A model generated the notes under the pieces. It had not been told where the DNA came from and did not search any database. It saw only the letters and a list, made by a program, of their open reading frames with translations. DNA of 64,000 nt from an uncultured Eubacteriales bacterium (lineage in GTDB: Bacteria > Acidobacteriota > Aminicenantia > Aminicenantales > Aminicenantaceae): the NCBI GenBank assembly GCA_964624145.1, contig CAZUXT010000009.1, positions 12,269 through 76,268 of the forward strand. Direction: 5' to 3'. This document shows, piece by piece, positions 2,832 through 40,738 of this stretch. Position numbers and translations under genes: made by a program. Positions within the stretch are counted from its first letter, which is position 1; the number at the start of each line of letters is the position of its first letter.

Positions 2832-2967
2832 TTTTATCTCCCTTATCTTGGATAATATAGTGTATTTGCAGAGGCGCTCTATTTCCCCATAAGCCCATGA
2901 AGGAATTATATTAGTTTCACAATAGGGATACAACAGTTAATTTTAGATGAGCAGTGCGGATCAGGCT

Positions 2968-4584: not shown

Positions 4585-4588
4585 TGTC

Positions 4589-5838: not shown

Positions 5839-8400
5839 TTATTCGTAGCGTAAAGAATCCACAGGATCTGAGTGGGCGGCTTTGAGTGCCTGGAATGTAA
5901 CGGTGATTTGAGCGATGAAAAGAGAGAGAAGAGCTGTTCCCAAAAATATCGTCCAGGAAAGGGGAATCCTGTAAGGAAAGTCACTGAGCCAGTTGTGCAT
6001 CAGAAAATAAGCCACAGGCCAGGCAATAACATTGGCAATAAGAACCCATTTGGCATATTCTTTGGACAGCATAAAAATGATTTTGGTAACAGATGCTCCC
6101 AGAACCTTGCGGATGCCGATTTCTTTGGTCCTTTGCTCGGCCGTGAATGATGCTAGGCCAAAAAGCCCCAGACAGGAAATCACTATAGCCAGAAACGTAA
6201 AGGTCCTGACGATTCCCATTTCCCGTTCCAAACCTCTATAAAGCCGGTCATAGTCTTGATCTAAAAATCTGTATTCAAACGGGAATTCCGGGTTGAATTT
6301 TTTTGCCGCTTCCTTTATGGAAGCAAGGGCTCCGGGGATATCTCCTGGATTCAAACGGATGAACATATAATTGTATTCGCGCATTTGAGGATTGTGATAA
6401 AGAAGAAGAGGGCCGATTTCCCTGTAGACAGGGGTGAAGTGAAAATCCTTGACTACACCTATGACTTGGAGTGCAAGTTCTCCTTGAGAAAGCCGGGCGC
6501 CGATAATGTTATCCAGGCCCATGATTTCAGCGAACCGCTCGTTAATCAGAACATTTGAACCGCTGTTCTCGGTTCCTTTGCGGAAGGATTCTCCTTGTGT
6601 GATTTCCATTTGGAATGTTTCCGGGAAATCAGGGTCCACACCAAAATAAGTGACCAAAGGATTAATATTGGGATCACGGCCTTCCCAATCCCAATCCTGT
6701 CCGTTGTTGTAGATGCCGGTGGGAGAATGAGAGGCCAGGGATATGTTTTTAATGCCCGGATCCTGTAGAAGTTCATGCTTCATGGATGCATAGCTCTTCT
6801 TTAAATTGCCTTCCACCCGGATATAAAGTAGGTGTTCTTTATCAAATCCGAGATTTTTATTTTTTATATATTTGACTTGATTGAAGATGACCAGAGTTCC
6901 GATAATCAACATCACAGAAAGAGAAAACTGCACGACAACCAGAATTTTGCGGAAAAGATCTCCTTTTTTTCCTGAGATGCCTTTTCCTTTCAATACGGCA
7001 GCAGGCCGGAAGCTAGAAAGGAATACAGCCGGATAGATTCCGGCTATGATTCCGGTAAGAACGGTCACAGCTAAGATGCCTAATATTATTTGTCCATTAA
7101 CGAGGCTTAAAAAATACAGGGGTTTGCCGGTCAGTGTTCTGAAAAAGGGCATGAGAAGTCTCACCAAAATCAAGGCTGTAATAAGTGAAATAAAGGTAAA
7201 CAGGACAGATTCTCCAAAAAACTGTTTGGTCACCTGAGTCCTCCTGGCACCCACTACTTTCCGGAGGCCCACTTCTCTTGAGCGCTGAGAAGAGCGGGCT
7301 GTTGTCAGATTCATGAAGTTGATGCATGCGATAATCAATATGAGAAAAGCAATAATGGTGAATATCCGGATCTGTCCTATCCTTCCCCAGACTTGAAGAT
7401 AGACTTGACTAAAAGGATAGAGAAAGGGCTCTGAATTCGTTTCAGGTCTGGATTCCCTGATGCGGTTTGCGATTTTTTTATTAAATGATTCCAGGTTGAA
7501 ATTTTGATCCACTTCAGCGTAGGTTCTGAAAGCAAGATTGTACCAGGTCTCGGTATAGCCCGGTCTCCATACAGTATTGGCAAATTCCAGGGGAATCCAT
7601 ACGCTGAAACGGATTGTAGAGTTATGAGGGATGTCTTTCATCACTCCTACCACTTTGAAATCATACTCTTCATTAATGGTTAAGGTCTTTCCTACAGGAT
7701 TGTCCCGGCCGAAATATTTATCAGCAACGCTTTCGGAAAGAACCAATACATTCGGCCCGGAAAACAGGTCTTCGATCCTTCCTTGGATCAGAGGAAAGGT
7801 GAAGATCTGGAAAATTTCCGGGTCTGCCATTTGTATGAGCTCTTTGAATTTCGTTTCGCCGCTGGTGAAAAGAAATTCTCCCTGACCATTGTTGAATCTG
7901 GCCGTATTGATGATTTCCGGATACTCGGCTTTAAGAGCAGGCCCTATAGCAGGGACAGAACCCATGCCTTCCTCAGTTTCACTCCCATAGTGCTGGATGT
8001 TCCGGACAACATAGAGTGAGTCAATCTTTTCATGAAACTTATCAGTGCTCAGTTCATCCTGCACCCAGAAGAGGATCAAAATACAACAGGCCATGCCGAG
8101 AGCAAGACCTATGATGTTAAGGATCGAATAGGCTTTGTGCCTTCTGATATGACGAAAAGCGATTTTAAGATAATTTTTGAGCATAGCAAAACTCCAGTAA
8201 AAGAAATTTTTAATACTCAGAGGGATGACTTTTAAGACCTGTGACCAATACCAGAGAAAGGCCTTGAATGGTCCTTTTGTCATGAGTTCATACTGAAATC
8301 CCTCTTCAAAGTCTCCTAGTTTTTCACTTTGTTCTTCCCGGCGGAAAATGATTTTGAGCAGATGTTCCGCAAGACGGGGATGCCTTTTTAATTTGCTCAT
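5839..8400 (-). CDS. ABC transporter permease, duplicated MacB/FtsX type (ADOP-like) with N-terminal permease-prefix domain
   Basis: Two MacB-PCD/FtsX repeats (IACINFMNL...REVGLRKVVGA; AEQRTKEIGIRKVLGAS); start set at MSKLK (8400) just after the padR stop. Confidence 0.92.
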   Translation of the reverse strand: MSKLKRHPRLAEHLLKIIFRREEQSEKLGDFEEGFQYELMTKGPFKAFLWYWSQVLKVIPLSIKNFFYWSFAMLKNYLKIAFRHIRRHKAYSILNIIGLALGMACCILILFWVQDELSTDKFHEKIDSLYVVRNIQHYGSETEEGMGSVPAIGPALKAEYPEIINTARFNNGQGEFLFTSGETKFKELIQMADPEIFQIFTFPLIQGRIEDLFSGPNVLVLSESVADKYFGRDNPVGKTLTINEEYDFKVVGVMKDIPHNSTIRFSVWIPLEFANTVWRPGYTETWYNLAFRTYAEVDQNFNLESFNKKIANRIRESRPETNSEPFLYPFSQVYLQVWGRIGQIRIFTIIAFLILIIACINFMNLTTARSSQRSREVGLRKVVGARRTQVTKQFFGESVLFTFISLITALILVRLLMPFFRTLTGKPLYFLSLVNGQIILGILAVTVLTGIIAGIYPAVFLSSFRPAAVLKGKGISGKKGDLFRKILVVVQFSLSVMLIIGTLVIFNQVKYIKNKNLGFDKEHLLYIRVEGNLKKSYASMKHELLQDPGIKNISLASHSPTGIYNNGQDWDWEGRDPNINPLVTYFGVDPDFPETFQMEITQGESFRKGTENSGSNVLINERFAEIMGLDNIIGARLSQGELALQVIGVVKDFHFTPVYREIGPLLLYHNPQMREYNYMFIRLNPGDIPGALASIKEAAKKFNPEFPFEYRFLDQDYDRLYRGLEREMGIVRTFTFLAIVISCLGLFGLASFTAEQRTKEIGIRKVLGASVTKIIFMLSKEYAKWVLIANVIAWPVAYFLMHNWLSDFPYRIPLSWTIFLGTALLSLFIAQITVTFQALKAAHSDPVDSLRYE

Positions 8401-8408
8401 TTTTTGTT

Positions 8409-8729
8409 TTATGTCAGTACCTTCTTGGGGACTTTTTCCCATATGTTCTCATAGACTCTTCGAATCTCCAAAAGGGCTTCTTTTCCCTCGTCGGTTATTT
8501 TGTACAGGTACTTGTGTCTTCCTCCCCGTTCAGGGGTGCTTTCTCCTTTGTGTTTGATCAGATATCCTTTATGAGTCAGTTTGTTCAACGGATCATAAAT
8601 CTGGGCCAGAGACCACTTCACTCCTGTTGCTTCATGGATAAGTTCCCTTATGGATATCCCATAAGCATTTTCTTCCAGTTTTAAAACACTCAGAAGTATG
8701 ATTTCCTCAGCTCTGGATAAAAGTTTCAT
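8409..8729 (-). CDS. PadR family transcriptional regulator
   Basis: 106 aa; AYGISI...IYDPLNKL...GGRHKYLYKITDEG winged-helix pattern; directly upstream of the permease. Confidence 0.93.
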   Translation of the reverse strand: MKLLSRAEEIILLSVLKLEENAYGISIRELIHEATGVKWSLAQIYDPLNKLTHKGYLIKHKGESTPERGGRHKYLYKITDEGKEALLEIRRVYENIWEKVPKKVLT

Positions 8730-12744: not shown

Positions 12745-12942
12745 TTTGTTTCAGTAACTCCTTAGATGATTATAAATACAATTTATCAAAAACCCTGATT
12801 GAAATGAAGCGGCAATTTCAAGGGATTGCCCCTTTTGTCAGCCATCACGCCCATAAAAAAACAGAAGGTTATTGAATGGATTCTTTCAGTTTGTTCTGAT
12901 ATTATCTGGTTTTGCCATAATGATACATAGAGACCTTAGTTG

Positions 12943-13101
12943 ATGGGTATTCTTTTTAGCGGAGTGGCTGGTATTATGGTCTACATAGGTTTGGATGAGC
13001 TGCTGCCTACCAGCAGGGCTTACGGCAAGGGGCATGACAGTATTTTAGGCTTGGTGAGCGGAATGCTGGTCATGGCCTTGAGCCTGCTGTTGATGAGATA
13101 G
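12943..13101 (+). pseudogene. zupT: 3' remnant of a ZIP-family zinc transporter (last two TM helices only)
   Basis: Manual translation [52 protein letters not shown] matches the ZupT C-terminus; in-frame TAG at 12937 upstream; rest of gene absent. Confidence 0.8.
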
Positions 13102-13142
13102 TACATTTGTCTCATTTTTGATAATTAGTATGTTCGTCCTAT
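13099..13142 (+). promoter_or_regulatory. Conserved motif copy A (TAGTACATTTGTCTCATTT, 13099-13117) plus degenerate second repeat (TAGTATGTTCGTCCTAT, 13126-13142)
   Basis: 17/19 identical to each of the copies at 31786-31804 (-) and 37866-37884 (+). Confidence 0.75.
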
Positions 13143-13209: not shown

Positions 13210-13269
13210 ATGAGAAAAAAAAATCAGTTTATGCTGGATTATCTCAGGGAGCTGGGCAACGATCAATAG
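13210..13269 (+). CDS. 19-aa small ORF MRKKNQFMLDYLRELGNDQ, in frame with the downstream protease
   Basis: GAGGAG RBS at about 13196-13201; TAG at 13267-13269 is immediately followed by the GTG at 13270 in the same frame. Confidence 0.45.
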   Translation: MRKKNQFMLDYLRELGNDQ

Positions 13270-14337
13270 GTGACGGGACGGATGAAAAAAATAAAAATAA
13301 AGCGGGTCTTTGTTTTCCTTTTCTTTACTTTTCTCTTATCTTGGGGTTTTGACTGGTTGGTCATAGGCCTTGGAGGATCCGGCGCTTTCCGCAGCCTGAG
13401 CATGAGTCCATGGGGTATGCTTGTTCCTGCTCTGGTCGCCATTGTTCTCCAGATGTTTTTCTATAAAGACAGCCCTATATATTATCAGACCTATAAAGAA
13501 AAGCCGCGCTGGATCTTTTTAGGTTTCATGATCCTTACTGTAGTTTATGGGATTCTGACACTTCTTGCAGTATTTAACCCGGGATCCGGACAGATCTTCC
13601 AGGGTCTGGGAGCCCTCCTGTTTACGCTTTGGATTTTAGGGGTGTTTTTTATTCGCGGTCAAAGCAGTGAGGGGGCATTTGAACGGGCCGGATTGAAGCT
13701 GGGAAATGTGAAGATAGCGCAGCGTTTTATAGGGGGTATCCTGCTGTTTTTTCTCCTGCAGGCTGGTTTTAATCTCATTTTCAAGCTGGGTCCTTTTGTG
13801 GGCAGGATTGAACGCATATACGGCCTGCCCATCCCCTCATCTTTATATGTTCCGGCCCTGATCGTTCTATTTGTTCTGGTTGCTGTTATCGGAGTGCCAT
13901 TAAGCGGAATAGCCGGGGTTTTCGGTGAAGAGTACGGCTGGCGCGGTTTTTTGCAGTCTGAATTAACCAAGCTCGGGAATCTCAAAGGGGTTCTGTTGGT
14001 TGGTTTGATCTGGGGAATTTGGCATTTTCCCATTATTTTAAGAGGCATCCATACCTATCCGCCGTCTGTTTTGGGTCTTTTTTTAGGGGTGATATTTTTT
14101 GTATTATGGGGAATCATTCAGGGTTATGCGGTGATCAAAACCGGAAGCATCTGGGTTGCTGCCTTTATGCACGGTCTGGTGAACAGTGTGTACGGTTTTA
14201 TGCTTTCGTATGTGGTGAGACCTGAAAACAGGGTTTTTTCTTTCGGACTGGGAATTTACGGCATAGTCTGTCTGCTGATTGTGGTGGGATGGATTCTCCG
14301 GGATCCGGTCTGGAAAAAAGAAAACAAAGGGATATAA
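13270..14337 (+). CDS. CPBP (CAAX/Abi) intramembrane glutamic protease
   Basis: GEEYGWRGF, WGIWHFP and FMHGLVN motifs; multi-TM; start may be GTG 13270 or ATG 13282. Confidence 0.93.
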   Translation: MTGRMKKIKIKRVFVFLFFTFLLSWGFDWLVIGLGGSGAFRSLSMSPWGMLVPALVAIVLQMFFYKDSPIYYQTYKEKPRWIFLGFMILTVVYGILTLLAVFNPGSGQIFQGLGALLFTLWILGVFFIRGQSSEGAFERAGLKLGNVKIAQRFIGGILLFFLLQAGFNLIFKLGPFVGRIERIYGLPIPSSLYVPALIVLFVLVAVIGVPLSGIAGVFGEEYGWRGFLQSELTKLGNLKGVLLVGLIWGIWHFPIILRGIHTYPPSVLGLFLGVIFFVLWGIIQGYAVIKTGSIWVAAFMHGLVNSVYGFMLSYVVRPENRVFSFGLGIYGIVCLLIVVGWILRDPVWKKENKGI

Positions 14338-14481: not shown

Positions 14482-15495
14482 ATGTCAGGAACAAAGGTAT
14501 TTGTTACCGGGGCAGATGGTCTTTTAGGAAGCCATCTCGTCAGAGAGCTTTTAAAAAAGGGGTTTTCGGTCAAAGCGCTCATTCATCCGAAAAGCACATC
14601 CCGGAGCTTGGAGGGATTGGATATTGAAACCGTTAAAGGCGATCTTTTAAACGGAGGCAGCTCCCTTGCCGGGGCGCTCTATGGATGCCGCTATCTCTTC
14701 CACTGTGCGGCAATGACGGATATTTGGGGTGATCCGGATTTAATCTGGAAGATTAATTTCGACGGGACCCGAAAGATATTGGATGCCTCTCTTAAGGCTA
14801 AGATCGAGCGTGTGGTCTATGTGGGGTCAGCCAGTTCCTATCAGTTCGGCACCTATGAGAACCCCGGGGACGAACAGGCTCCCTTTCCCAATGCTTATAG
14901 AGGCGTTGCCTATATGGAATCAAAGTACAAGGCATCGGGATTGGTCCGAAGTTATGTGAGAAAATACGACTTGGATGCTGTGATCGTTGCTCCCACCTTT
15001 ATGTTTGGAGCCTATGATTCAAGGCCCAGTTCCGGAGAGCTTATCCGGCAGTATATCAGCAGGGATATCCGGATTGTGCCTCCAGGCGGAAGGAATTTCG
15101 TCAATGCCAGAGATGCGGCCAAAGCCATGGTCTCCTCACTTTTTAATGGGAGGACAGGACAAAGCTATATTTTGGGAGGTTTGAATATGAGCTACTTTGA
15201 TTTTTTCTCTACCGTATTCCGGATTGCGGAGAAAAAACCTCCCCGCCTCGTTATTCCAAAGGTTCTCATGCGTTTCGGAGGGTTGTTTGGTTCTTTATCC
15301 GGAAAGATATCCAAAAGAAAACCGGTTCTTGAGGAGAGACTAGCCAAGTTTTCCTGTATACGCGCCTACTACAGTTCAGCGAAAGCCAATCAGGAATTGA
15401 ACATGCAGGAGACCAATATCGAGACAACCATTTCAGAATCCATACAGAGTCTTCAAGATTATGGATTTCTTAACGGTAATGGGAGGGAGTTGTGA
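14482..15495 (+). CDS. NAD-dependent epimerase/dehydratase (HpnA/dihydroflavonol reductase-like extended SDR)
   Basis: VTGADGLLG Rossmann motif, FHCAA, YMESK; AGGAGG RBS before ATG 14482. Confidence 0.92.
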   Translation: MSGTKVFVTGADGLLGSHLVRELLKKGFSVKALIHPKSTSRSLEGLDIETVKGDLLNGGSSLAGALYGCRYLFHCAAMTDIWGDPDLIWKINFDGTRKILDASLKAKIERVVYVGSASSYQFGTYENPGDEQAPFPNAYRGVAYMESKYKASGLVRSYVRKYDLDAVIVAPTFMFGAYDSRPSSGELIRQYISRDIRIVPPGGRNFVNARDAAKAMVSSLFNGRTGQSYILGGLNMSYFDFFSTVFRIAEKKPPRLVIPKVLMRFGGLFGSLSGKISKRKPVLEERLAKFSCIRAYYSSAKANQELNMQETNIETTISESIQSLQDYGFLNGNGREL

Positions 15496-16472: not shown

Positions 16473-19400
16473 ATGGCCATCAAATGCCCGAAGTGTCATT
16501 ATGAGAATCCTGAGGGGACCTCTTTTTGCGGAAAATGCGGGACCCAGCTTGGTCCGGACGCAGGTCCTACCCAGACTATGGAAACCCCAACCACAGCGCT
16601 TCACATAGGCACCACATTTGCCAAAAGATATGAGATTCTGGAAGAACTGGGCAGAGGAGGCATGGGAGAGGTCTTTAGGGTCAAGGATGAAAAACTTGAT
16701 GAAGAGATGGCCCTCAAGGTCGTCAAACCCGAGATCGCTGCCCGCAAAGAGATCATTGAGCGCTTCAAGAATGAACTAAAGCTTTCCCGGAAGATCGCCC
16801 ACAGGCATGTCTGCCGGATGTATGACCTGAATGAAGAGGGAGAGACTCCTTACATCACTATGGAATATGTCAGAGGGGAGGACCTTAAAAGCCTGATCCG
16901 GAAAAAAGGGAAATTAAGTGAAAAGCAAGCGGTCGCTGTAGCCAAGCAGGTGTGTGAGGGGCTGGCTGAAGCCCATGAGCTGGGAGTGGTGCACAGGGAT
17001 CTCAAACCCCAGAACATCATGATCGATGAGAGGAACCATGCCAAGATCATGGATTTTGGCATCGCCCGCCTGGTTGAGGCTCCGGGAGTCACCCAGTCCG
17101 GGATGATGATCGGGACGCCGGATTACATGTCCCCTGAGCAGGCGGACGGAGAAGAGGCAGACCAGGTATCTGACATCTATTCTTTGGGAGTGATCCTCTA
17201 TGAGATGGTGACAGGGAGTGTTCCTTTTAAAGGGGATACAGCTTTGAGTGTGGCTCTCAAACACAAGACAAAGCTTCCTCCGAACCCAAAAAAGCTCAGT
17301 CCTGAGATTTCAGATGATCTGAGAAGGTTGATTCTGATCTGTATGGAGAAGGAACGGGAGAGGAGATATCAATCCGCTGAGGCCCTGCTGAACGATCTGC
17401 GTAATATCGAAGATGGACTGCCGCTCGGCACAAAGATAAAACCCCGTAGAAAGATGTTTTTGGCCCCCTTTCTCCGGAAGAGATTTCTCATTCCGGCTGT
17501 GGTTCTCACCCTTGCCGTTATCGCTGTCGTTATCTGGCAGCTTTTTCCAGGAAAAGGCGCGGCTGCTCCTCTGATCGAAAACTCTATAGCGGTCATAAGC
17601 TTCGAGAACCTGACCGGTGATGAAGCCAATGATATGCTGCAGCGGGCCATTCCCAATCTTGTGATCACCAATTTGGAAAACACCGGACTGCTTCATGTGG
17701 CCACCTGGGAACGCCTGCAGGATCTGATGAAACAGGTGGGCAGAGAGAATGAGGAAACCATTGATAAAGACCTGGGATTCGAGCTCTGCCGCAGGGAAGG
17801 CATCGAATCCATTGTGCTGGGCAGTGTGATGAAGGTGGGAGATGTATTCGCAACCGATGTCAAGGTCTTCGATGTGGCAACCAAAGAACTCATCAAAAGC
17901 GCCAGTTCTCAGGGCGAGGGAATCGACAGCATCATCAACACCCAGATCAGTGAACTCAGCAGGGAGATCGCCCTGGGAGTCGGTATCACCAGGCAGGAGA
18001 TAGCCTCAGCCGACCTTGATGTCTCCGAGTATACCACCACATCCATGGAGGCTTACAGCTATTTTATCAAAGGAAGAGAGGATTGGTACAATCAATATAC
18101 AAAGGATGCCATAACCCGTCTCGAGAAAGCTGTGGAGCTCGATCCCAATTTTGCTGTGGCTTATTTGTATCTCGGATGGTCATACGGTCTGATTCAAGAT
18201 TATAAAAAACAAAGAGAAAACTATGAAAAGGCTAAAGAACTTTCGGAAACGATTATCCTTACAGAAAAAGAAAAGCTTATGATCGATACGCTATTTGCCG
18301 AGTCTGAAGAGAAGTATTTGGAGATTTTGAACACCATTGTTGCAAAATACCCAAGAGACAAATGGGCGCATCTGGAGTTGAGCAAGCATTACAGAAAAAA
18401 TGATATATACTCCGAAGTCATCAAACATTCAGAAATCGTGTTGGCTCTCGATCCTTCCTGGGGAGATGCGTATGAGGAGCTGGCCTTTGCCTATGCGAAC
18501 ACAGGAGATAATGAAAAGGCTCTTGAATATCTGCAGAAGTATTCTGCTGCTATTCCCGGAGATCCCAGCGCGAATCTTACGACAGGCCATTTTTATGTAA
18601 AGATGGGAAAGATCGATGACGCCATTAGAAAATTCAAGGATGCTCTGGATATTAAACCTGACTTTAATATCGAGAATTTTATCGCTTATGCCTATGCCAT
18701 GAAAGAAGATTATACAGAGACTTTTCAATGGATGGACAAATACATTACAAACGCTCCCTCGGAAAGCAAAAAAGCTGATACAGGATATACTTTCAAGGGA
18801 TTTTATCACTACATACTTGGAAACTCCAAACAGGCTGTCGAATATCTGCAAAGAGCATTTGAAACCCCCTGGTTCGGTTTCAGTAGAAATCCTAGAGCTG
18901 AATATATCATGGCTGATGTCAATTATGAGAGCGGCAAATACGATTTATGCCGGGATCAATTCCAGCGTTGGCATGATCGGTGTCAGGAAAAAACTCCCCA
19001 AGAAGCAGTAGCTAGTCGGAGTTATAATTCCTTTTGGCTCCACTGTCCTTTGGGGGCAATTGAGTTAAAACGTGGTAACATCGATTCTGCCCGGTTACAA
19101 CTGAAAAAGATGGAAGACTTGTTGCCCAAAATAACGACCCCCCAAAAATGGGAAGGGTATTACTGGCTTCTCGGCCAGATATTGCTGGCTGAGAAATCAT
19201 ATGACGAAGCCATATCAGTTCTCAAAGACGCTCCACGTTTGAAAATGCCCTGGATATGGCTCACCCAGAATATCATCACTTATAACATGTTAAACATCGA
19301 TTCCTTTTTAGCACAGGCTTATAAGGAAAATGGGGATCTGGACCAGGCCATAGAGGTCTATGAGCGATTGACAGATCCCAATCCAGAAAACAGGGATGGA

Positions 19401-19577
19401 CGGCTCATCCGTCCTGAGAATTACTATTACCTAGGTGAACTGTACGAAAAAAAAGGGAAGAAAGCCAAAGCTATCGCCTCGTACGAAAAATTCCTCGATC
19501 TCTGGAAGGATGCTGACATGAGAACAGAAGAGCGCGAGAAGGCGAGACAAAGGCTGGCTGTGCTGAAGAATCTTTAA
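16473..19577 (+). CDS. Hanks-type Ser/Thr protein kinase: zinc ribbon, kinase, TM helix, TolB-N/FlgO-like domain, TPR array
   Basis: CPKC...CGKC; GRGGMG, ALK, HRDLKPQN, DFG, GTPDYMSPE; TM LIPAVVLTLAVIAVVIW; multiple TPRs. Confidence 0.96.
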   Translation: MAIKCPKCHYENPEGTSFCGKCGTQLGPDAGPTQTMETPTTALHIGTTFAKRYEILEELGRGGMGEVFRVKDEKLDEEMALKVVKPEIAARKEIIERFKNELKLSRKIAHRHVCRMYDLNEEGETPYITMEYVRGEDLKSLIRKKGKLSEKQAVAVAKQVCEGLAEAHELGVVHRDLKPQNIMIDERNHAKIMDFGIARLVEAPGVTQSGMMIGTPDYMSPEQADGEEADQVSDIYSLGVILYEMVTGSVPFKGDTALSVALKHKTKLPPNPKKLSPEISDDLRRLILICMEKERERRYQSAEALLNDLRNIEDGLPLGTKIKPRRKMFLAPFLRKRFLIPAVVLTLAVIAVVIWQLFPGKGAAAPLIENSIAVISFENLTGDEANDMLQRAIPNLVITNLENTGLLHVATWERLQDLMKQVGRENEETIDKDLGFELCRREGIESIVLGSVMKVGDVFATDVKVFDVATKELIKSASSQGEGIDSIINTQISELSREIALGVGITRQEIASADLDVSEYTTTSMEAYSYFIKGREDWYNQYTKDAITRLEKAVELDPNFAVAYLYLGWSYGLIQDYKKQRENYEKAKELSETIILTEKEKLMIDTLFAESEEKYLEILNTIVAKYPRDKWAHLELSKHYRKNDIYSEVIKHSEIVLALDPSWGDAYEELAFAYANTGDNEKALEYLQKYSAAIPGDPSANLTTGHFYVKMGKIDDAIRKFKDALDIKPDFNIENFIAYAYAMKEDYTETFQWMDKYITNAPSESKKADTGYTFKGFYHYILGNSKQAVEYLQRAFETPWFGFSRNPRAEYIMADVNYESGKYDLCRDQFQRWHDRCQEKTPQEAVASRSYNSFWLHCPLGAIELKRGNIDSARLQLKKMEDLLPKITTPQKWEGYYWLLGQILLAEKSYDEAISVLKDAPRLKMPWIWLTQNIITYNMLNIDSFLAQAYKENGDLDQAIEVYERLTDPNPENRDGRLIRPENYYYLGELYEKKGKKAKAIASYEKFLDLWKDADMRTEEREKARQRLAVLKNL

Positions 19578-29644: not shown

Positions 29645-31534
29645 CTATTGAAGCAGGCGGTAAATCAGGATTCTGTTGTCAATAAAGGTGGGAATGACAA
29701 TAAGGTTTTTATGGGGAATAATGAGAAAATTAGCCATTGGAATTCCTTTATTCGTGGAATCCAGCATTTTTGTAATCACACCTTCTGCAGTAATTCTGTA
29801 CAGCCTTCCCTGGTTATGGGAAATCCATATATGACCTTGACCATCTGCTTCAATTCCATCGATCAAACCATCGGAAAACCGGGCTATCCGTTTAATTTTT
29901 TTGGTTTTCAAGTCAATGCTTTTAACTGAGGAGTCCCCGTTACATCCCACAATCAACTGTCCCCTCACGATCTCAATTCCATTTGGCCTAACCACCTGAC
30001 CTGAATCCAGCCATTCTTGAAGAGACCCTCTGTCTTGGGAGACTTGAAATATTTGGCTGGCTCGGAAATCAGACACAAATATATTTCCCTGTTCGTCAAT
30101 TGTGATGTCATTTAAACTAACCGCTTTTTTATAGACATGCCTCACTATTTGTTCGGTATCATCAGTCTTTATCTGCACCAGGGCATTTGGTTCCACAATC
30201 CACAAAGTTTCTCCATCCACAGCCATGCCCATGGGATTATTCAGTCCTTTCAGCCAATGAGGATCGACTTTTTTCTGGCTTAAGTCAAGCCGGCTGACAG
30301 ACTGCAAGTTTCGACCCCCACTCGGACGGTAACCATCATAATTGGAGATGTAAACACAATCATGGATACGGTCATAACACGCGGTTTCCGGTATGGCAAA
30401 GAGACTCGGTGATTCCCAGACTCTTTCCAGAGAGCCATGAACCATTTCCTGGTCCGCTCTTTGCAGAATAAATCCCCATCCGCCAAATACATCTGCCAAA
30501 ACTATGAAAATTTCGTTATTTCCTTTCCTTAACGGAAGATAGAGAGTATCAAACAAACCTACAGTTCCTAAAAATCCTGAATCCCGGCTGGTGTACCCGC
30601 TGTTCCCGCTGAATATGGGTTGTCCATTGCAAAAAACGAAAATCACATCACTATAGCCCAGGTTGAAAGGCTTGACTCCATCTTGATCTGCTTTGAAGTT
30701 GGTTTTGGCATAGATCAGATAGGGTCTGTTCTGGGCCGTGACTTCCTTGGCGACATCCACTATTCCCGATGGACTGGATTTAACGGATTTCCAGTTGATC
30801 TTTTCGAACATTTTTTCTGAAGGATACCTATCCAGAGGACAATGGTCATAATAGTCCAAAGGTTGAGAGATATCCCAGTCGGTCATAATATTGGAAGGTG
30901 TGACAAGATAAGGAAGAGGGGGAAAGTCTGTTGGTTCCTGGAGAGTGTATGAGAAATTAGAAAAATAGGCAGAGCCGTCTTCCGGGCTTAAGAGCCCTAT
31001 TTTTCCTTTACTTAACCCATGCTCCAGATGAAAAATTTCCAGGTTCGGCTTATCTGAATTCCCGATAAAAACCTGGCCTCGATCTCCCATGACTTCCAGG
31101 CGAATATGAATCCATTCTCCTTCTGGTATGGATAAAGGAGCGGTGTATCCTGTTCCTGTGTATAACTGCCATCCGTCAATCCCGTTTATAGTAGGCACAT
31201 ACTGAAGGGCATCCTCATAGAGTCCGGCCCGGTGGGGGCGGATATAAACTCTCTCCCGGTTAAACTGGGATTGCATGCGGAAAATAATTCCAGGGTATGA
31301 GCGCCTGCCATCAACAGCCACATCCACTTCAATAATCCCGTCTTCGAATTCGATTCCTTTCAATAAAGCTGTCCCCATAAAAGCTTTTCTGCCCAGGTGA
31401 TCGACTATTTTTCCTGAAAAAATCTGCCAGTTTTCTGAATTAAAATCATTATTTCCTGTTTCTGCTTGGACTGTGGTCAAAAAAATGATCAATAAGCACA
31501 GAATCAAACATTTAGTCTTCATATGAATAGCCAT
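29645..31534 (-). CDS. Exported modular protein: ConA-like/DUF1080 domain, beta-sandwich linker domain, SMP-30/gluconolactonase-like propeller
   Basis: AGGAGG RBS; signal peptide; WIHIRLEV...GKIGL...YFSNF; C-terminal PET, LNNPMG, LNDITID, PNGI, IDGI blades. Confidence 0.75.
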   Translation of the reverse strand: MAIHMKTKCLILCLLIIFLTTVQAETGNNDFNSENWQIFSGKIVDHLGRKAFMGTALLKGIEFEDGIIEVDVAVDGRRSYPGIIFRMQSQFNRERVYIRPHRAGLYEDALQYVPTINGIDGWQLYTGTGYTAPLSIPEGEWIHIRLEVMGDRGQVFIGNSDKPNLEIFHLEHGLSKGKIGLLSPEDGSAYFSNFSYTLQEPTDFPPLPYLVTPSNIMTDWDISQPLDYYDHCPLDRYPSEKMFEKINWKSVKSSPSGIVDVAKEVTAQNRPYLIYAKTNFKADQDGVKPFNLGYSDVIFVFCNGQPIFSGNSGYTSRDSGFLGTVGLFDTLYLPLRKGNNEIFIVLADVFGGWGFILQRADQEMVHGSLERVWESPSLFAIPETACYDRIHDCVYISNYDGYRPSGGRNLQSVSRLDLSQKKVDPHWLKGLNNPMGMAVDGETLWIVEPNALVQIKTDDTEQIVRHVYKKAVSLNDITIDEQGNIFVSDFRASQIFQVSQDRGSLQEWLDSGQVVRPNGIEIVRGQLIVGCNGDSSVKSIDLKTKKIKRIARFSDGLIDGIEADGQGHIWISHNQGRLYRITAEGVITKMLDSTNKGIPMANFLIIPHKNLIVIPTFIDNRILIYRLLQ

Positions 31535-31734
31535 TTGAATCCTCCTTTTTTATTCATGATCATTATTTTTTGTTGCTTCTCAGGCACAGTGAGATTTTTT
31601 TTATATCCGAAGCTGCAGCACCTGAAAACAAACAATATGATTATAATGACAACAATAATAAATGTCATGATATCAAGTAAAGAGTCTCGTGTCTTATTTT
31701 TGAACGGATTATACTTTTTTTTCCCCACAGCCAT
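31519..31734 (-). CDS. Possible small single-TM protein (71 aa)
   Basis: Hydrophobic stretch IMTFIIVVIIIILFVF; overlaps the next gene by 16 nt; no RBS. Confidence 0.4.
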   Translation of the reverse strand: MAVGKKKYNPFKNKTRDSLLDIMTFIIVVIIIILFVFRCCSFGYKKNLTVPEKQQKIMIMNKKGGFKWLFI

Positions 31735-31761
31735 AGATTAGGGCATTTATTTTAATTTCCA

Positions 31762-31804
31762 ATAGGACAAACATCACTAATACTGAAATAAGACAAAAGT
31801 ACTA
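31762..31804 (-). promoter_or_regulatory. Conserved motif copy B (TAGTACTTTTGTCTTATTT, 31804-31786) plus second repeat (TAGTGATGTTTGTCCTAT, 31779-31762)
   Basis: Near-identical to copies A and C; lies in the divergent intergenic region of the propeller-LuxR gene. Confidence 0.75.
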
Positions 31805-31869
31805 AATGCTGGAAAAACATACTTTTATGAGTATAATGATTCGATAACCGTTTTATTTATTCAAAACAA

Positions 31870-34593
31870 ATGAAACCCAACAACTCATATCTTGTGAGAC
31901 AAAAAAAAAGAATGGCCTTGCACCTGGTCGCCTTATGTATGATTCTTCCACCGCTGTTATCCGGTCCTGCCCAAAACAATTTGAAATTCAATCACTTATC
32001 TGTTGAAGAAGGGCTCTCAAATAGCCAGGTGAACTGCATGCTTCAGGACAGCAGGGGATTCTTTTGGATCGGAACCCAGGATGGACTGAACCGCTTTGAT
32101 GGCCATTCCTTTGTGGTTTTTCAGAAACAACAGAGTAATCCCAATTCAATTTCCGGAAACGGAGTCTGGGCCTTATGTGAAGACAGAAAGGGAAATATAT
32201 GGATAGGCACTTATGGACAGGGTTTAAATAAACTGAATACCCGGACCGGACAGTTTACTCATTATAAAAATGTCAAAGGAGATCCGCATTCATTATGTGA
32301 TAACCGGGTTGTCACTCTGTTTGAAGATTCGCATGAAAGGATATGGGTGGGAACAGATCAGGGTGGTTTCTGCTGGTTCGAACCAAAAGAGGCAATTTTC
32401 CAACAACCCGAAGAAATAAAGAACAGAAAAAACAATAGAGGAAGCCGGATCTTCTGTTTTCTTGAAGATGATCCGGGGGAGATCTGGATTGGTTCGGACT
32501 CAGGGATTTTAAGATATGAGCCTGAAACCGGGATATTCTCAGATGTCTTTGACTCGGCTCATAAAGAATCCTTTTCTTTAAACAGGGGGGTTTTTGATAT
32601 CTTAAAGGAAGAAAACGGCCGGATATGGTTAGGTCTCCGGCATGGTATCCTGGAATTCGATCCGGAGAAAAAGAGGGGTTTCCTGTATCCCTTTGATCCT
32701 GATTATAAAACTGACTCCAGCGTTGATCTTTGGGAGGATTCATCCGGAATTATTTGGTCAGTCCGCGGAAGCGCGGGGTTAGAACGGGTGGATCGTGAAA
32801 ATAAAAATCTAATTCACTATCCGATAGATCCCTATGATCCCTATGGTTTGAGCACTGATGAGCTCTCATGTCTATTTGAGGATAAATCAGGTTTGTTATG
32901 GATAGGAACCAATGACGGGATATTCCAGTTGAATGAAAGGCGGTTCTCAATCACTCATTACTACCAGAAATTACAAGACAAAATAAGCTTGAGTGATAAC
33001 AGAGTGGCTGCTATTCTTGAAGATAGTTCTGGTTTTCTCTGGTTCGGAACATCAGAAGGATTGAGCCAGTTTGACCGCAAATCCAACAAATTTATTCACT
33101 TTCAGCAAGGATTCCCCAATTCCATCAGCCAGAACCAGGTGTGGGCTTTGGAGGAAGATATCAACAAAAGATTGTGGATAGGCACTTTTGGTGAAGGAGT
33201 GTATCTCCTAGACCTCAAAACAGGGAAACTCACACATTTTCGAAATAGGCCTAACGATCCAAAGAGTTTGAGTCATGATGTGGCCTTAGAAATATATAGG
33301 GATCACAAAAGAAGGATGTGGGTGGGAACAGACGGAGGGGGACTGAATTTGTATGACAAAGAAGAAAACGGCTTTATCCGTTTTCAGCATGATCCAAGAA
33401 ATCCTTCTTCCATCGGCAGTGATATTGTCATGGACATCATGCAGGATCAAAAGGGCTATTATTGGGTAGCAACGTGGGGTGGAGGACTGAACCGGTTTGA
33501 TGGACAAACCAACAATTTTACGCATTTCAATCATGATTCTGAAGACCCAGATTCACTGAGCTTTGATATTGTCCTTTGTGTTATAGAAGATAAGAAAGGA
33601 AATATCTGGGCAGGAACGTATGGCGGTGGGTTGAACAGGTTGAATCCCGAATCCGAAACATTCAATCACTTTACAGTGGAGGACGGCCTTCCCAATAATA
33701 ATGTTTTGGGAATACTGGAAGACTCTCAGGGTGTTCTGTGGTTCAGCACTTATTCGGGGTTGGCTCGATTTAATCCGGATAGTCAGGCTTGTATTACCTT
33801 TAATCAACAGGATGGAATTCTAAGTAACGAGTTCAATATCGGAGCCTATTATAAGACGCGTCAAGGAGAGCTTTTTTTTGGTGGGAAAAAGGGTGTCTCG
33901 GCTTTCTTCCCTGAAGATTTAAAGAAGAGTACTTTTCTACATCCTCTTCGTTTTAGCTCTCTTGAGATATTTGGGAAAGAGGGTGGAAAAGAATACTTTA
34001 TTTCAGAGAAAACAAAAGTAAAAATTTCTTATAAAGATTCTTTCCAGTTGAGTTTCTCCTCTATGGATTACAACAATTCAGACAAAAATCAATACGCTTA
34101 TAAGATGGGAGGATACCAGGCTGATTGGATTGAACTGGGGAATAAAAACACCCTCACTTTTGCCAATTTAAAACCTGGTTCTTATAAATTAAGAGTGAAA
34201 GGCACAAACAGTGACGGAGTATGGAATCCGGAGGAGGCTTCTCTTGCCATTCATGTCTCGCCGCCTTTCTGGGGTACCTGGTGGTTTCGTGCTTTCATTG
34301 TTCTTATCGGAGCGGCCTTGTTAATTAACTGGCACCAAAACCGGATGCAGAGGTTAACGAGACGTTTGAAAACTGAAGCCCAGGTAGAACGCTTGTGTTT
34401 GAAATATAAAATATCTGAAAGGGAGATCGAGATCATAAAGTTATTATTAAGGGGCTTTAATAGGGCTCAGGTTGCGGATAAACTCTTTATTTCAGAATTA
34501 ACGGTGAGAAACCATATCTATTCTATATATAAAAAACTGGGCATAAAGAATCGAGCCCAGTTGTTGGAGCTCTTCCGCTATATGGACCGTTAG
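31870..34593 (+). CDS. Transmembrane sensor-regulator: two-component-type beta-propeller repeats, Y_Y_Y domain, TM helix, LuxR-type HTH
   Basis: About 14 Reg_prop repeats (D.kG.lWiGT.g.GL); YAYKMGG...LKPGSYKLRVKG...PPFWGTWWF; C-terminal ISERE...RAQVADKLFISELTVRNHIYSIYKKLGIKNR; no H-box, ATPase or receiver domain. Confidence 0.92.
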   Translation: MKPNNSYLVRQKKRMALHLVALCMILPPLLSGPAQNNLKFNHLSVEEGLSNSQVNCMLQDSRGFFWIGTQDGLNRFDGHSFVVFQKQQSNPNSISGNGVWALCEDRKGNIWIGTYGQGLNKLNTRTGQFTHYKNVKGDPHSLCDNRVVTLFEDSHERIWVGTDQGGFCWFEPKEAIFQQPEEIKNRKNNRGSRIFCFLEDDPGEIWIGSDSGILRYEPETGIFSDVFDSAHKESFSLNRGVFDILKEENGRIWLGLRHGILEFDPEKKRGFLYPFDPDYKTDSSVDLWEDSSGIIWSVRGSAGLERVDRENKNLIHYPIDPYDPYGLSTDELSCLFEDKSGLLWIGTNDGIFQLNERRFSITHYYQKLQDKISLSDNRVAAILEDSSGFLWFGTSEGLSQFDRKSNKFIHFQQGFPNSISQNQVWALEEDINKRLWIGTFGEGVYLLDLKTGKLTHFRNRPNDPKSLSHDVALEIYRDHKRRMWVGTDGGGLNLYDKEENGFIRFQHDPRNPSSIGSDIVMDIMQDQKGYYWVATWGGGLNRFDGQTNNFTHFNHDSEDPDSLSFDIVLCVIEDKKGNIWAGTYGGGLNRLNPESETFNHFTVEDGLPNNNVLGILEDSQGVLWFSTYSGLARFNPDSQACITFNQQDGILSNEFNIGAYYKTRQGELFFGGKKGVSAFFPEDLKKSTFLHPLRFSSLEIFGKEGGKEYFISEKTKVKISYKDSFQLSFSSMDYNNSDKNQYAYKMGGYQADWIELGNKNTLTFANLKPGSYKLRVKGTNSDGVWNPEEASLAIHVSPPFWGTWWFRAFIVLIGAALLINWHQNRMQRLTRRLKTEAQVERLCLKYKISEREIEIIKLLLRGFNRAQVADKLFISELTVRNHIYSIYKKLGIKNRAQLLELFRYMDR

Positions 34594-34642
34594 AGTTTCT
34601 ATTGGTGTTTGTTTTCAGAGTCTTTATAGGTCCATAGATTCT

Positions 34643-35266
34643 TCAGTAATTTTTTGATTTGAATAGCTTAGGAAAATATTTCCCTGTTTTCTTGATGTAA
34701 TTTTGATAGTCTTCACCGAACCTCTCCAGCAGTTGTTTTTCTTCATAGGGGGACCTAACAAGGCAGACAATAACAGAAACAGCTATTAAGAGGATTCCAA
34801 GAGCCCAGTTTGAGGTGATTAAAAAAGCGGAGACCATGAACGGAATGAAAGCCACATTTATGGGATGCCTTAGGTAGCTGTAGACTCCTGTGGTTATGAG
34901 TGAATGGTTTTTATGGAATCCTCTGGTTCCATGATATTCGGTTTTGATTGAACGGAAAGCCCACCAGAAAAAACCCATTGAAAAGCCTAGAAGTATAAGC
35001 CCTATCCAGTTTATCAGCAGGGGAAAGTCCAGATATGCCCAGGAAAAATAAGTTTTTGGAAGCAGCCACTCTATAAGGAACACATAACCGGGGAAGCCCA
35101 GGATGCCCCGAATCCATAATAATGATTTTAATTCGGTTTTGTGGGCATTGAATTCATCAAAAGAGCACTGGTGTTTATTTTGAGCTCTTTTTGTCGCATT
35201 CTTAGTGAATACAATGATGAGAGTAAAGGCGCTAATAAAAACGGCTTTAAATATCCATATAACCAT
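34643..35266 (-). CDS. Isoprenylcysteine carboxyl methyltransferase (ICMT/PEMT) family membrane protein
   Basis: LITTGVYSYLRHP, EEKQLLERFGEDY...TGKYFP. Confidence 0.9.
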   Translation of the reverse strand: MVIWIFKAVFISAFTLIIVFTKNATKRAQNKHQCSFDEFNAHKTELKSLLWIRGILGFPGYVFLIEWLLPKTYFSWAYLDFPLLINWIGLILLGFSMGFFWWAFRSIKTEYHGTRGFHKNHSLITTGVYSYLRHPINVAFIPFMVSAFLITSNWALGILLIAVSVIVCLVRSPYEEKQLLERFGEDYQNYIKKTGKYFPKLFKSKNY

Positions 35267-37865: not shown

Positions 37866-37919
37866 TAGTACTTTTGTCTCAATTTGAAATTGAAGGTTCA
37901 AATTGAAAAAGATTATGAT
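37866..37919 (+). promoter_or_regulatory. Conserved motif copy C (TAGTACTTTTGTCTCAATT, 37866-37884) followed by a candidate promoter
   Basis: Motif ends 5 bp upstream of TTGAAG (37890) -18- TATGAT (37914). Confidence 0.72.
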
Positions 37920-37975: not shown

Positions 37976-40738
37976 ATGAACATTTCAATAAAGATGCAAG
38001 TATGGATTTTGATGGCTTTGATGGGGTTCTTTTTTTTCCTCAATCCTTTCATTCACGGTGAAGTTAATGATTCTTATCATGACGGAACAGATGTTGTTTT
38101 TGCCTGCATGATCGATCCCGGTTCAAATGAAATGGAGACCATAATATGGGTGAAAAGCATTCGAAAATTCGGGGGAAAGTATGCTTCAAATCCGGTTTGG
38201 ATCTTTGTTCCCAACAGTATTGATCCTATCACTGCTTATACCCGGAGACATCTGGAAGAACTGGATGCCGTATTGTTTTGCTTTAAAGCTGATGAACGTA
38301 TTCTGCGGTTTCCTTTTGCGGCCAAAGTCCTGGCTTCAGCAGAAGCAGAGAAGAGAGCCAAAGGAAAATATGGACTTCTGGCATGGATGGACCCGGATAA
38401 TATCTTTGTGAATGAACCGGTCGAATTTGAAATTTCTCCGGAAAAGGCATTGGCTTACAGACCGGTCCACCACATCAACATAGGCAGCAGATACCATGAG
38501 CCGCTTGATGAGTTCTGGAGTTTGGTTTATAAAGACTGCCGTGTCCCTGATGAAAAAGTTTTTTTCATGAAGCCAACCGTTGAAGAAGAGCTCATAAGGC
38601 CGTATTTCAATGCAGGTCATTTGCTTTTGAGGCCTGAGAAAGGGATTTTAAGTACCTGGGCAGAAACGTTTCACAGGCTGTACAGGAAACCGGAGTATGT
38701 TGAGTTTTACAAAAAAGATATCCGCTATGCCATTTTCGTTCACCAGGCTGTTTTATCTGCCGTCATTCTGGCAGAATTAGAGAATAAAGAACTAAGGGAG
38801 TTCCCATCAAAATACAACTACACACTCAACCTTTATCACCAGATACCGGTCCATCGAAGGATTAAGAAGTTAAATGATTTAACCTCAGTCAGAATAGACT
38901 CGTATGACCTTCCTCAATATTGGAGATCTCTCATGGAGATCGATGAGCCTCTGAAAAGCTGGATGGATGAACAGTTCCGGTTCAAGGGTGTGGAAATACT
39001 GGCCTATTTTGGTCATAAAACCGGAGCTAATAATTTCTTGAACAGAGATATGTATGAACAATTCGGTTGGAATGTCACTATAGCAGGGCTTAGAGAGTCT
39101 GTGGAGGGTTGTGATTTCTATGCCAAATCCCTCAAAGTGAAACCGTTTATTCCTGAGGTCAGATTGGATGAAATAACAAATATCGGTCATTATGATGCGT
39201 TGGCTGTGATGCCGGTTTCGTCTTATTTTAATAAAGATCCTTACAGGGATTTACTGGATAATCCCCGGGCAATGGAAAAGGTAAAGGAAGCAGTCATGGG
39301 AAACATTCCTGTGTCCACCATTTGTTCCGGGGCGAGGGTTCTTGCTGCCGCAGGGGTTATCAATGGAAAAAAGATACTGGGACAGCCCCCATTCAAAGAG
39401 GAATATGCTCAAGCCGGGGCTGTTTATCTGGGTAAGGATTTTCCTCCTCAGATCGAAGGCAGCATTCTCACCGGGACGCGTGATCAGTATTATCATTATG
39501 TTATTTCCCTTGCTTTGTCTACCATGATCGAACAAAGAGGCCAGAGAGGAAAGCACAAATCCGAACCAGAAAAAGATATCATTTTTGCCCGAGATGCCCG
39601 TGTGGTGAAAAAAGGAGCTGCCTGGCAAAAAATAGTGGGTGGATTCGGAGCTGACGGGGGGAGAGATGTGGCTGAAACAGATGAGGGCGGATTGATTGTA
39701 ACTGGATATACGTTTTCCCAGGGATCAGGGGATGCTGATATTCTGGTTGTTAAAACTGATTCAAAAGGAGAAATGCAGTGGGCCCGGACTTTTGGGGGAG
39801 CCGGGACTGAATATGGAAATGATTGTGAAGTACTGAGGGATGGTTATTTGATAACAGGATACACCACATCATTCGGAGCCGGATCTAAGGATGTGTATGT
39901 CATCAAAATTGATAAAGATGGAGAAGTGATTTGGGGAAAAACTTATGGGGGTCAAAGCTGGGATGTCGGGATGGCCTCCTGTGAGACAGACAAGGGCTAT
40001 ATGATATGCGGATTCACTCATTCCTTTGGAAAAGGAGAGGAAGATATCTATCTTATGAATCTTGACCGAGAAGGAAATCAGGTCTGGTGGAAAACTTACG
40101 GGGGAGAACGGTTTGAATTTGGAAATTCTATTGATAAACTTGAAAGCGGGAATTATATTATCGGTGCTTCAACAGGAACGTTCGGAAAAGGCAACTGCGA
40201 TATGTATTTGATTGAGGTTGATAAAGAGGGGAATGAAATCTGGGCCAACTCCATAGGAGGACAATTAGAAAGCGCTCTGCCTGAAGCGGGCCGGACTTTT
40301 TTTGACTGGAGCTCAAAAATGAAACTCTGTTCAGATGAAGGGATTGTTTCAGTCGGTTACTCCAATGCCAGAGATATTATGAATGTTTTTGTGGTTAAAA
40401 CAGACAAAAAGGGAAATCTGTTGTGGGGGCAAAACCTGGGGAACAGCCCTTTTTACGACTACGGCTTTTCCATTGATGAAACAGTTCAAGGGGATTATGT
40501 GGTTTGCGGAGCCTCCAAATCTGTTGATGGGAACAATGAATTGTTTTTAGCGTTTCTGGACAGAGACGGAAGGGTTATTCTAAAATATGTCTACGGTGGT
40601 CCGGGTTCTGATTGGGGAAAGGCGGTCTGTGTCAAGAAGAACGGAGAGATTATCATAGCAGGCCATACGAATTCAGATAACTTCGGATCTTACGAATTAT
40701 TCCTTATGGAGCTGGAAGACTGGGAGTTAAATGAATAA
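37976..40738 (+). CDS. Exported fusion: GT-A/GT8-like domain, DJ-1/PfpI domain, beta-propeller repeats
   Basis: Signal peptide; MDPD and YFNAG motifs; DJ-1 YDALAVMP...STICSG; repeats W.ktyGG...d.g in the C-terminal about 370 aa. Confidence 0.75.
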   Translation: MNISIKMQVWILMALMGFFFFLNPFIHGEVNDSYHDGTDVVFACMIDPGSNEMETIIWVKSIRKFGGKYASNPVWIFVPNSIDPITAYTRRHLEELDAVLFCFKADERILRFPFAAKVLASAEAEKRAKGKYGLLAWMDPDNIFVNEPVEFEISPEKALAYRPVHHINIGSRYHEPLDEFWSLVYKDCRVPDEKVFFMKPTVEEELIRPYFNAGHLLLRPEKGILSTWAETFHRLYRKPEYVEFYKKDIRYAIFVHQAVLSAVILAELENKELREFPSKYNYTLNLYHQIPVHRRIKKLNDLTSVRIDSYDLPQYWRSLMEIDEPLKSWMDEQFRFKGVEILAYFGHKTGANNFLNRDMYEQFGWNVTIAGLRESVEGCDFYAKSLKVKPFIPEVRLDEITNIGHYDALAVMPVSSYFNKDPYRDLLDNPRAMEKVKEAVMGNIPVSTICSGARVLAAAGVINGKKILGQPPFKEEYAQAGAVYLGKDFPPQIEGSILTGTRDQYYHYVISLALSTMIEQRGQRGKHKSEPEKDIIFARDARVVKKGAAWQKIVGGFGADGGRDVAETDEGGLIVTGYTFSQGSGDADILVVKTDSKGEMQWARTFGGAGTEYGNDCEVLRDGYLITGYTTSFGAGSKDVYVIKIDKDGEVIWGKTYGGQSWDVGMASCETDKGYMICGFTHSFGKGEEDIYLMNLDREGNQVWWKTYGGERFEFGNSIDKLESGNYIIGASTGTFGKGNCDMYLIEVDKEGNEIWANSIGGQLESALPEAGRTFFDWSSKMKLCSDEGIVSVGYSNARDIMNVFVVKTDKKGNLLWGQNLGNSPFYDYGFSIDETVQGDYVVCGASKSVDGNNELFLAFLDRDGRVILKYVYGGPGSDWGKAVCVKKNGEIIIAGHTNSDNFGSYELFLMELEDWELNE

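Follow-up and report, generated by a model that had tools for sequence, protein, structure and literature searches.

One gene in the 64,000-nucleotide stretch of DNA considered here (the window: positions 12,269 to 76,268 of contig CAZUXT010000009.1, assembly GCA_964624145.1, from an uncultured bacterium of the acidobacterial lineage Aminicenantaceae) encodes a 907-aa regulator in which a periplasmic sensor is joined, through one transmembrane (TM) helix and a short helical linker, to a LuxR-type helix-turn-helix (HTH). Sequence comparison and structure prediction are best explained, with a probability that we put at roughly 0.6, by a membrane-anchored one-component transcription factor of the kind described as BguR, in which the sensor would be coupled directly to the DNA-binding domain. 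The sensor-TM-LuxR HTH design is already described and widespread, and the gene is an ordinary member of a described family. Given the BguR precedent and the breadth of the family, the novelty implied by the original prediction, which had been made from the DNA letters, was overstated. What the locus adds is a host outside the Bacteroidota, a context outside polysaccharide utilization loci (PULs), an invariant spacing between TM helix and HTH, a candidate operator motif and a conserved, divergently encoded small membrane protein.

Pfam recognised Reg_prop in ten stretches (E 3.4e-61), one Y_Y_Y domain and, at the C-terminus, a GerE domain scoring 54.7 bits against a gathering cut-off of 23.5, and HisKA, HATPase_c and Response_reg all went unmatched at E<=0.1. 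Consistent with Pfam, NCBIfam returned LuxR-type HTH matches at the C-terminus and nothing else. Hydropathy analysis showed two hydrophobic segments, at residues 15-33 and 801-822, the latter being the sole internal one; since it is followed by the basic stretch NRMQRLTRRLK, the C-terminal 85 residues are predicted to be cytoplasmic. The sensor aligned with solved periplasmic domains from Bacteroides hybrid two-component systems (HTCS), namely 4A2L (BT4663; E 2e-111), 3V9F (4e-93) and 3OTT (5e-40), while the HTH matched VpsT, GerE, ChrA and DosR in the PDB and was the sole LuxR HTH encoded by the open reading frames (ORFs) of the window. The length of the regulator falls inside the 850-1050 aa range that the BguR authors used for screening. 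These results bear out the original prediction of an HTCS-type periplasmic module that leads through a single TM helix to a LuxR HTH, kinase and receiver domains being absent. The linker is indeed short, but it spans 26-27 residues from the TM helix to the Pfam HTH rather than the roughly 20 first estimated.

Comparison across metagenomes indicates that this architecture is genuine, and neither an assembly artefact nor a decayed HTCS. The regulator region was found in at least eight salt-marsh metagenome runs, each holding at least 0.89 of the sampled 31-mers, and contigs of four independent runs spanned positions 31400-34700, including the TM-HTH junction, with no gaps, no joints and one substitution. 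Four distinct orthologues (P0002-P0005), encoded at five loci from other samples, were 54-72% identical to the regulator, 896-929 aa long and endowed with the same Pfam set. The gap-free independent contigs and the intact orthologues rule out a deleted kinase or receiver segment, a flaw that the original prediction had considered. No RNA-seq runs holding the regulator region were found.

The original prediction had also proposed a search for the distribution of the architecture. With the C-terminal 212 aa (Y_Y_Y, TM helix, linker and GerE) as the query against 1.84 billion cluster representatives at the 50% identity level, 194 representatives were recovered at E<=1e-30. Among the best 150 of these, nearly all matches were single, contiguous and ended at the C-terminus of the protein, and about 100 of the 194 were full-length at 850-1020 aa. 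In the best full-length matches the sensor was joined to SpoIIE phosphatase, GGDEF, histidine kinase, hybrid kinase, sigma-54 AAA+ or AraC-only outputs; judged from these homologues, the Reg_prop/Y_Y_Y module is promiscuous in its output fusions. In species-representative genomes, the nearest loci with a regulator-type C-terminus came mostly from metagenome-assembled genomes (MAGs) of Candidatus Aminicenantes (L095-L104; 39-49% identity to the regulator C-terminus, ORFs mostly ~860-924 aa), together with an Acidobacteriota MAG (L044). The window itself appears to derive from an organism of this type: its hydantoinase B shared 92% identity with the protein of one MAG and 63-66% with those of Aminicenantes MAGs. 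No BguR of the Flavobacteriia was among the loci retrieved by the C-terminus search, and a Maribacter locus (L137) considered as a BguR-type relative was rejected as a histidine kinase. A profile search for named family members returned only short fragments with uninformative names, and the literature search found nothing relevant on Reg_prop combined with GerE or on LuxR in Aminicenantes. From this distribution, the ATP-independent, membrane-tethered design appears to be well established in sediment bacteria of the Aminicenantes/Acidobacteriota type, in contexts other than PULs.

The connection between membrane and HTH is constant in length. Of 104 family representatives, no two of them from the same 50%-identity cluster, 100 had a spacing of 47 aa from W805 to E852 and 102 had a linker of 27 residues from H822 to S849. 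The HTH core residues R851, E852, G862, T878 and K889 were at least 96% conserved, and the recognition helix TV(K/R)NH(I)Y was near-invariant. AlphaFold2 (AF2), applied to the C-terminal fragment as a monomer with an 18-sequence alignment (mean predicted local distance difference test (pLDDT) score 83), predicted beta-strands in the Y_Y_Y region (pLDDT 74-88), a single unbroken helix over residues 804-845 (block means ~87-96 over most of the span) that stops four residues short of HTH helix 1, and a canonical four-helix GerE domain. The fixed 47-aa spacing and the continuous predicted helix together favour register-dependent mechanical coupling over a cleavable flexible tether. A coiled coil was considered for the linker and set aside, the heptad pattern being too unclean for such a claim. 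Of the two modes of action originally proposed, membrane-tethered direct coupling is supported by the domains, the topology, the orthologues and the BguR precedent, whereas proteolytic release is disfavoured by the invariant linker and the continuous helix.

In the mechanism that we propose, the regulator would be dimeric, and binding of a periplasmic ligand would move the two membrane-proximal Y_Y_Y/TM helices relative to each other, comparable to the scissor-blade model proposed for BT4663. The rigid helices would pass this movement to the two HTH domains, which as a pair, and without leaving the membrane, would gain or lose an arrangement competent for DNA binding. More tentatively, the operator would be a bipartite motif at 31762-31804, between the regulator promoter and a divergent operon, and further copies of the motif would place a CPBP protease gene and a 920-aa DJ-1/propeller gene in the same regulon (Table 1).

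At all five orthologue loci (four distinct proteins) both boxes of the motif were conserved upstream of the regulator, within ~150 bp of its start, while the spacers and flanks had diverged. The 13-mer of the motif occurred at 0 of 169 unrelated loci, the 15-mer was present in three copies in the window against 0.46 expected, and the bipartite motif had a single genome match, in an Aminicenantes MAG. As originally predicted, a full copy (13099-13142) precedes the PF02517 ORF that encodes the CPBP protease; its orientation relative to that gene is opposite to that of the 31762-31804 copy relative to the regulator. A 90% identical CPBP orthologue in L178 has the same upstream motif arrangement. 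The partial copy at 37866-37880 has a counterpart at 14598-14612 in the syntenic locus L081, where an extra full copy faces an ankyrin gene. Written as TAGTACWTTTGTC, the motif always reads toward the downstream gene, which at the regulator locus is the divergent small ORF, away from the regulator; elsewhere the downstream genes are those for CPBP, the 920-aa protein, the L081 ankyrin protein, Fis-like proteins in L179 and L181, and a 269-aa protein in L177. At L181 2335-2377 (-) and L179 1579-1621 (+), where the motif precedes a ~100-aa Fis-like protein and then a 244-aa membrane protein, the two boxes differ little from one another (two copies of AGGACAAAAGTACT at a distance of 26 bp), which suggests that the motif is fundamentally a direct repeat.

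At the regulator itself, five bases lie between the end of box 2 and the -35 hexamer, downstream of it, of a candidate promoter. The TATAAT of this promoter is conserved, along with GTGACA, in both L081 and L085. The occurrence of TAnnTTTG in the boxes had prompted us to consider a generic Bacteroidota-type promoter (-33 TTTG / -7 TAnnTTTG), which was rejected. TAnnTTTG was unenriched upstream of window genes (3 sense versus 4 antisense in 4 kb), and this, with the absence of the 13-mer from the 169 unrelated loci, argues that the motif is not a general promoter type. The most economical reading of the motif would be that of an operator for an autoregulated regulon.

Immediately before the CPBP-side motif ends a segment (window 12934-13101 (+)) in which only the 3'-terminal 55 codons of a ZIP/ZupT zinc transporter gene survive, with 94.5% identity to residues 259-313 of the complete 313-aa gene of L175; since a full-length ZIP/ZupT gene occupies the same position in L175 and L178, the window holds a deletion remnant. 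Downstream of the motif lies a conserved leader, GAAGAAAA(A)TC.ACA..AGGAGA (window 13210-13269 (+); L175 ~4850-4930 (-)), followed by a tiny ORF of 19 aa in the window and 6 aa in L175. In L175 the CPBP gene is missing after motif and leader, both of which lie between two convergent gene ends, beside a run of N.

Several points weigh against direct coupling with an autoregulated operator. The ligand, the oligomeric state and the DNA binding of the regulator are all things that we infer; the invariance of the linker is partly helped by selection in the homology search, which somewhat favours ungapped alignments; and the AF2 model represents a monomer fragment built from 18 sequences. Moreover, the motif always points to a downstream gene other than the regulator, it occurs in the metagenome contigs L177, L179 and L181 with no such regulator nearby, and its boxes form a direct repeat with 25-27-bp spacing, which is unusual for a single LuxR-type dimer. 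Given its direction and the regulator-free sites, the motif could be that of another factor or of an alternative sigma. It is possible, if somewhat improbable, that direct coupling is true and that such a factor (an alternative sigma or another transcription factor) reads the motif as a specialised promoter or operator, which would stand beside the regulator simply through driving the divergent small-ORF operon; the spacing of the boxes varies as that of promoter elements does. However, the unenriched TAnnTTTG shows that the motif is not of a housekeeping promoter type, it is retained at each of the five orthologue loci, among them L083 and L084, where other genes lie downstream of the regulator than in the window, and sites remote from an autoregulated regulator are to be expected of its regulon.

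Regulated proteolysis appears unlikely. Here binding of the ligand would render the regulator accessible to site-1 cleavage and to cleavage within the membrane, perhaps with the co-regulated CPBP protease as the enzyme, and the freed ~85-aa LuxR HTH would act in the cytoplasm, or the regulator would be destroyed as an off-switch, as for TcpP. The single-pass design with a short cytoplasmic output would suit such a scheme, as would the upstream motif shared with a CPBP/Rce1-like protease gene and kept in the orthologue of that gene. The shared motif nevertheless indicates co-regulation at most, and not cleavage of the regulator by the protease. The CPBP gene lies 18 kb off and is not found in the vicinity of the orthologues in L081, L083 and L084, no anti-sigma-type or PDZ-protease partner is present beside the regulator, the BguR account makes no mention of proteolysis, and neither the 47-aa spacing kept in 100 of the 104 representatives nor the continuous predicted helix is what a cleavable tether would lead one to expect.

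Direct coupling also presupposes that the tethered HTH itself acts on DNA. We consider it very improbable that it serves instead as a membrane decoy, sequestering or releasing a soluble or polytopic LuxR partner through the GerE dimerisation helix. Membrane-bound LuxR proteins with very similar HTHs are encoded in related genomes: a polytopic 319-aa membrane protein ending in a LuxR HTH (L081 11214-12173 (+)) is 54% identical to the regulator in that domain, and similar proteins of ~313 aa, common in the database, reach up to 62%, so the lineage holds several kinds of membrane-tethered LuxR regulators. Yet the window contains no homologue of the 319-aa protein and no other partner gene, the recognition-helix residues are strongly conserved, and BguR behaves genetically as a direct activator. 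A non-functional gene, left by the decay of a hybrid two-component system or by an assembly that lost the kinase and receiver, would accord with the closest database sensor homologues being mostly fused to histidine kinase, hybrid histidine kinase, SpoIIE or GGDEF, but is scarcely credible given the presence of the region in at least eight salt-marsh runs, the contigs of four runs that cross the TM-HTH junction without a gap, the exact architecture retained by orthologues at 54-72% identity, and a module family of at least 194 clusters with conserved HTH residues.

Table 1. Positions of the regulator, its domains, the motif copies and selected neighbouring genes in the window.
Feature	Position	Strand	Basis or remark
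Regulator gene, predicted BguR-type one-component system	31870..34593	+	907-aa ORF: sensor, TM helix, linker, LuxR HTH
Hydrophobic segment at the N-terminus, aa 15-33, as signal peptide or signal anchor	31912..31968	+	Hydropathy; preceded by RQKKR
Periplasmic tandem beta-propeller sensor (Reg_prop), ~aa 40-732	31987..34065	+	Pfam and PDB homology
Y_Y_Y domain, aa 733-796, membrane-proximal beta-sandwich	34066..34257	+	PF07495, E 1.2e-18
Single TM helix, aa 801-822, following the conserved PPFWxTWWF junction	34270..34335	+	Hydropathy, family conservation
Cytoplasmic helical linker, aa 823-848, constant length in the family	34336..34413	+	Family alignment, AF2
GerE/LuxR-type HTH, aa 849-899, recognition helix TV[KR]NHIY conserved	34414..34566	+	PF00196
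Candidate sigma-70-like promoter of the regulator, TGGAAA-16-TATAAT	31810..31837	+	Consensus scan, 10/12
Candidate operator of the regulator, bipartite motif ATAGGACAAACAT-N15-AAGACAAAAGTACTA within the divergent intergenic region	31762..31804	+	Conserved boxes
Second full motif copy, toward the CPBP gene	13099..13142	-	Motif search
Third motif copy, second box only (GAGACAAAAGTACTA), toward the 920-aa DJ-1/PfpI and propeller gene (37976..40738)	37866..37880	-	
CPBP/Rce1-like intramembrane protease, 355 aa, ~9 TM, EEYGWR motif	13270..14337	+	PF02517, E 5e-17
Small protein of 71 aa with a single TM, encoded divergently to the regulator	31519..31734	-	Stop overlaps (ATGA) an in-frame ATG of the 629-aa ORF
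Exported protein, 629 aa, weak DUF1080/3-keto-disaccharide-hydrolase match and NHL/SGL-like propeller	29645..31534	-	Pfam, PDB propeller matches
GH116 beta-glucosidase-2-like gene, 897 aa	49379-52072	-	Sole clear glycoside hydrolase among annotated window ORFs, 15 kb from the regulator

Upstream of the regulator, the divergent small TM protein has homologues of 68 aa in L081 and L082 (a gene call in L082) and of 43 aa in L084. As a family-wide feature the small ORF was rejected, since it is absent upstream of nine Aminicenantes paralogues, and it is specific to the orthologue group. The 629-aa exported protein encoded next to it is conserved in L081 and L082, with a 78% identical orthologue at the same position in L081, and it is likely to be a target of the regulator. 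Proteins of 622-762 aa encoded divergently beside the paralogues were rejected as its homologues, being a sigma-54 activator, M14 peptidases and a Big_7 protein. A more elaborate reading, which we regard as doubtful when its parts are taken jointly, is that in the orthologue group a BguR-like sensor may have been re-deployed outside glycan and PUL control. The regulator would then control itself and a small regulon (the small-TM/exported-propeller operon, CPBP and DJ-1/propeller) through the directional direct repeat of AGGACAAAAGTACT at 25-27 bp, and would form with the co-conserved micro-membrane protein a two-protein membrane module resembling ToxR/ToxS.

No SusC/D or PUL genes were found among the annotated window ORFs. 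The regulator is surrounded instead by genes for an aldehyde dehydrogenase, M1, S46 and C1 peptidases, beta-lactamase-fold proteins, an isoprenylcysteine carboxyl methyltransferase (ICMT)-like protein, and PD40, ankyrin and DJ-1 proteins. With no PUL context and a host outside the Bacteroidota, glycan sensing stays plausible by homology only; by analogy with the related sensors a glycan is a plausible ligand, of which the gene context gives no indication. In L081 a GH106 gene (alpha-L-rhamnosidase family; 2386-4353 (+)), which the window lacks, lies between the aldehyde dehydrogenase and 629-aa genes and is the only glycan-related gene directly beside the regulator module. The Aminicenantes paralogue loci adjoin M14 carboxypeptidases, a sigma-54 activator, an O-antigen-ligase-like protein and an NYN protein. 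M14 zinc carboxypeptidase genes lie directly upstream of the regulator gene in two of seven such loci (L095 1030-2655; L104 2-3559), a hint that some members of the family may have their link with the metabolism of peptides and not with that of glycans.

Convergent to the regulator is the ICMT-like gene (34643-35266 (-); NF040696, E 1e-26, with PEMT/ICMT Pfam matches). CPBP (Rce1) and ICMT proteins belong to the enzyme families that carry out eukaryotic CaaX post-prenylation processing. The pairing of the two, together with a conserved CC in the small TM protein, raised the idea of CaaX processing, which was dropped because the cysteines are not at the C-terminal CaaX position. Further from the regulator, the window encodes a 1034-aa protein (16473-19577 (+)) whose N-terminus carries a zinc ribbon and which also contains a Ser/Thr protein kinase domain and a long array of TPRs, and a 574-aa protein (2968-4692 (-)) with weak matches to multihaem cytochromes of the MtrC/MtrF type, adjoined by a MacB/FtsX-type permease (5839-8442). 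No Rfam families or tRNAs were found in the window.

The closest known system, described in a 2026 preprint, is BguR (beta-glucan utilization regulator) of Formosa agariphila KMM3901, along with its homologues in marine Bacteroidota. BguR comprises a signal peptide, two propellers, a Y_Y_Y domain, one TM helix, a helical linker and a GerE domain, with no phosphorelay (10.64898/2026.01.10.698779). Deletion of bguR abolished growth on laminarin, and PUL transcripts were 70-110-fold higher in the wild type than in the mutant (10.64898/2026.01.10.698779); the knock-out and RNA-seq together establish BguR as an activator that works without a phosphorelay. By published description, the domain order is the same in the two proteins (940 aa in BguR, 907 aa here), HisKA, HATPase_c and receiver domains are absent from both, and in both a conserved motif occupies the intergenic region beside the regulator gene. 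The settings differ. BguR homologues are reported to be 94-98% Bacteroidota and always found in beta-glucan PULs (10.64898/2026.01.10.698779), whereas our host is probably of the Aminicenantes/Acidobacteriota type from salt marsh, and the regulator adjoins small TM, DUF1080/propeller, ICMT-like and peptidase genes in place of SusC/D or a beta-glucan PUL. The BguR account treats the design as essentially a feature of Bacteroidota beta-glucan PULs; the present locus and its full-length relatives, some 100 or more in number, suggest otherwise. A 2023 survey of transmembrane transcription regulators lists Y_Y_Y among their commonest non-DNA-binding domains (PMC10269533).

The Bacteroides HTCS proteins (BT4663, 4A2L/4A2M; 3V9F; 3OTT) share with the regulator a homologous Reg_prop double propeller and Y_Y_Y domain followed by a TM helix, and a sensor presumed to be dimeric and to undergo a scissor-like rearrangement. 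Unlike them, the regulator has no HisKA, HATPase_c, receiver or AraC output; a helix of 26-27 aa leads straight to the LuxR HTH, within the 85 residues that follow the TM helix. The invariance of this spacing is a concrete, testable constraint on transmembrane signalling without a phosphorelay, and the short module of Y_Y_Y, TM helix, 27-aa helix and HTH, together with the candidate operator, would offer a compact system for studying or engineering direct transmembrane control of transcription.

The likeness to ToxR and CadC drawn in the original prediction holds as an analogy of logic: like these proteins and TcpP, the regulator is predicted to be single-pass, to sense outside the cell and to bind DNA while tethered to the membrane, with no phosphotransfer. 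In topology and HTH class the likeness fails, since ToxR and CadC carry an N-terminal cytoplasmic winged helix of the OmpR type and a C-terminal periplasmic domain, whereas the order is reversed in the regulator and its HTH is of the GerE/LuxR class; the sensor folds of ToxR, CadC and TcpP are also unlike its own. The conserved small membrane protein beside the regulator recalls the partners ToxS and TcpH, an interaction that is here a matter of analogy only. SusR, the Bacteroides starch regulator and the only comparable case cited in the BguR account (10.64898/2026.01.10.698779), differs from the regulator in its PUL linkage and its unrelated sensor and DNA-binding domains, and resembles it as a membrane-associated one-component activator that dispenses with phosphorelay domains.

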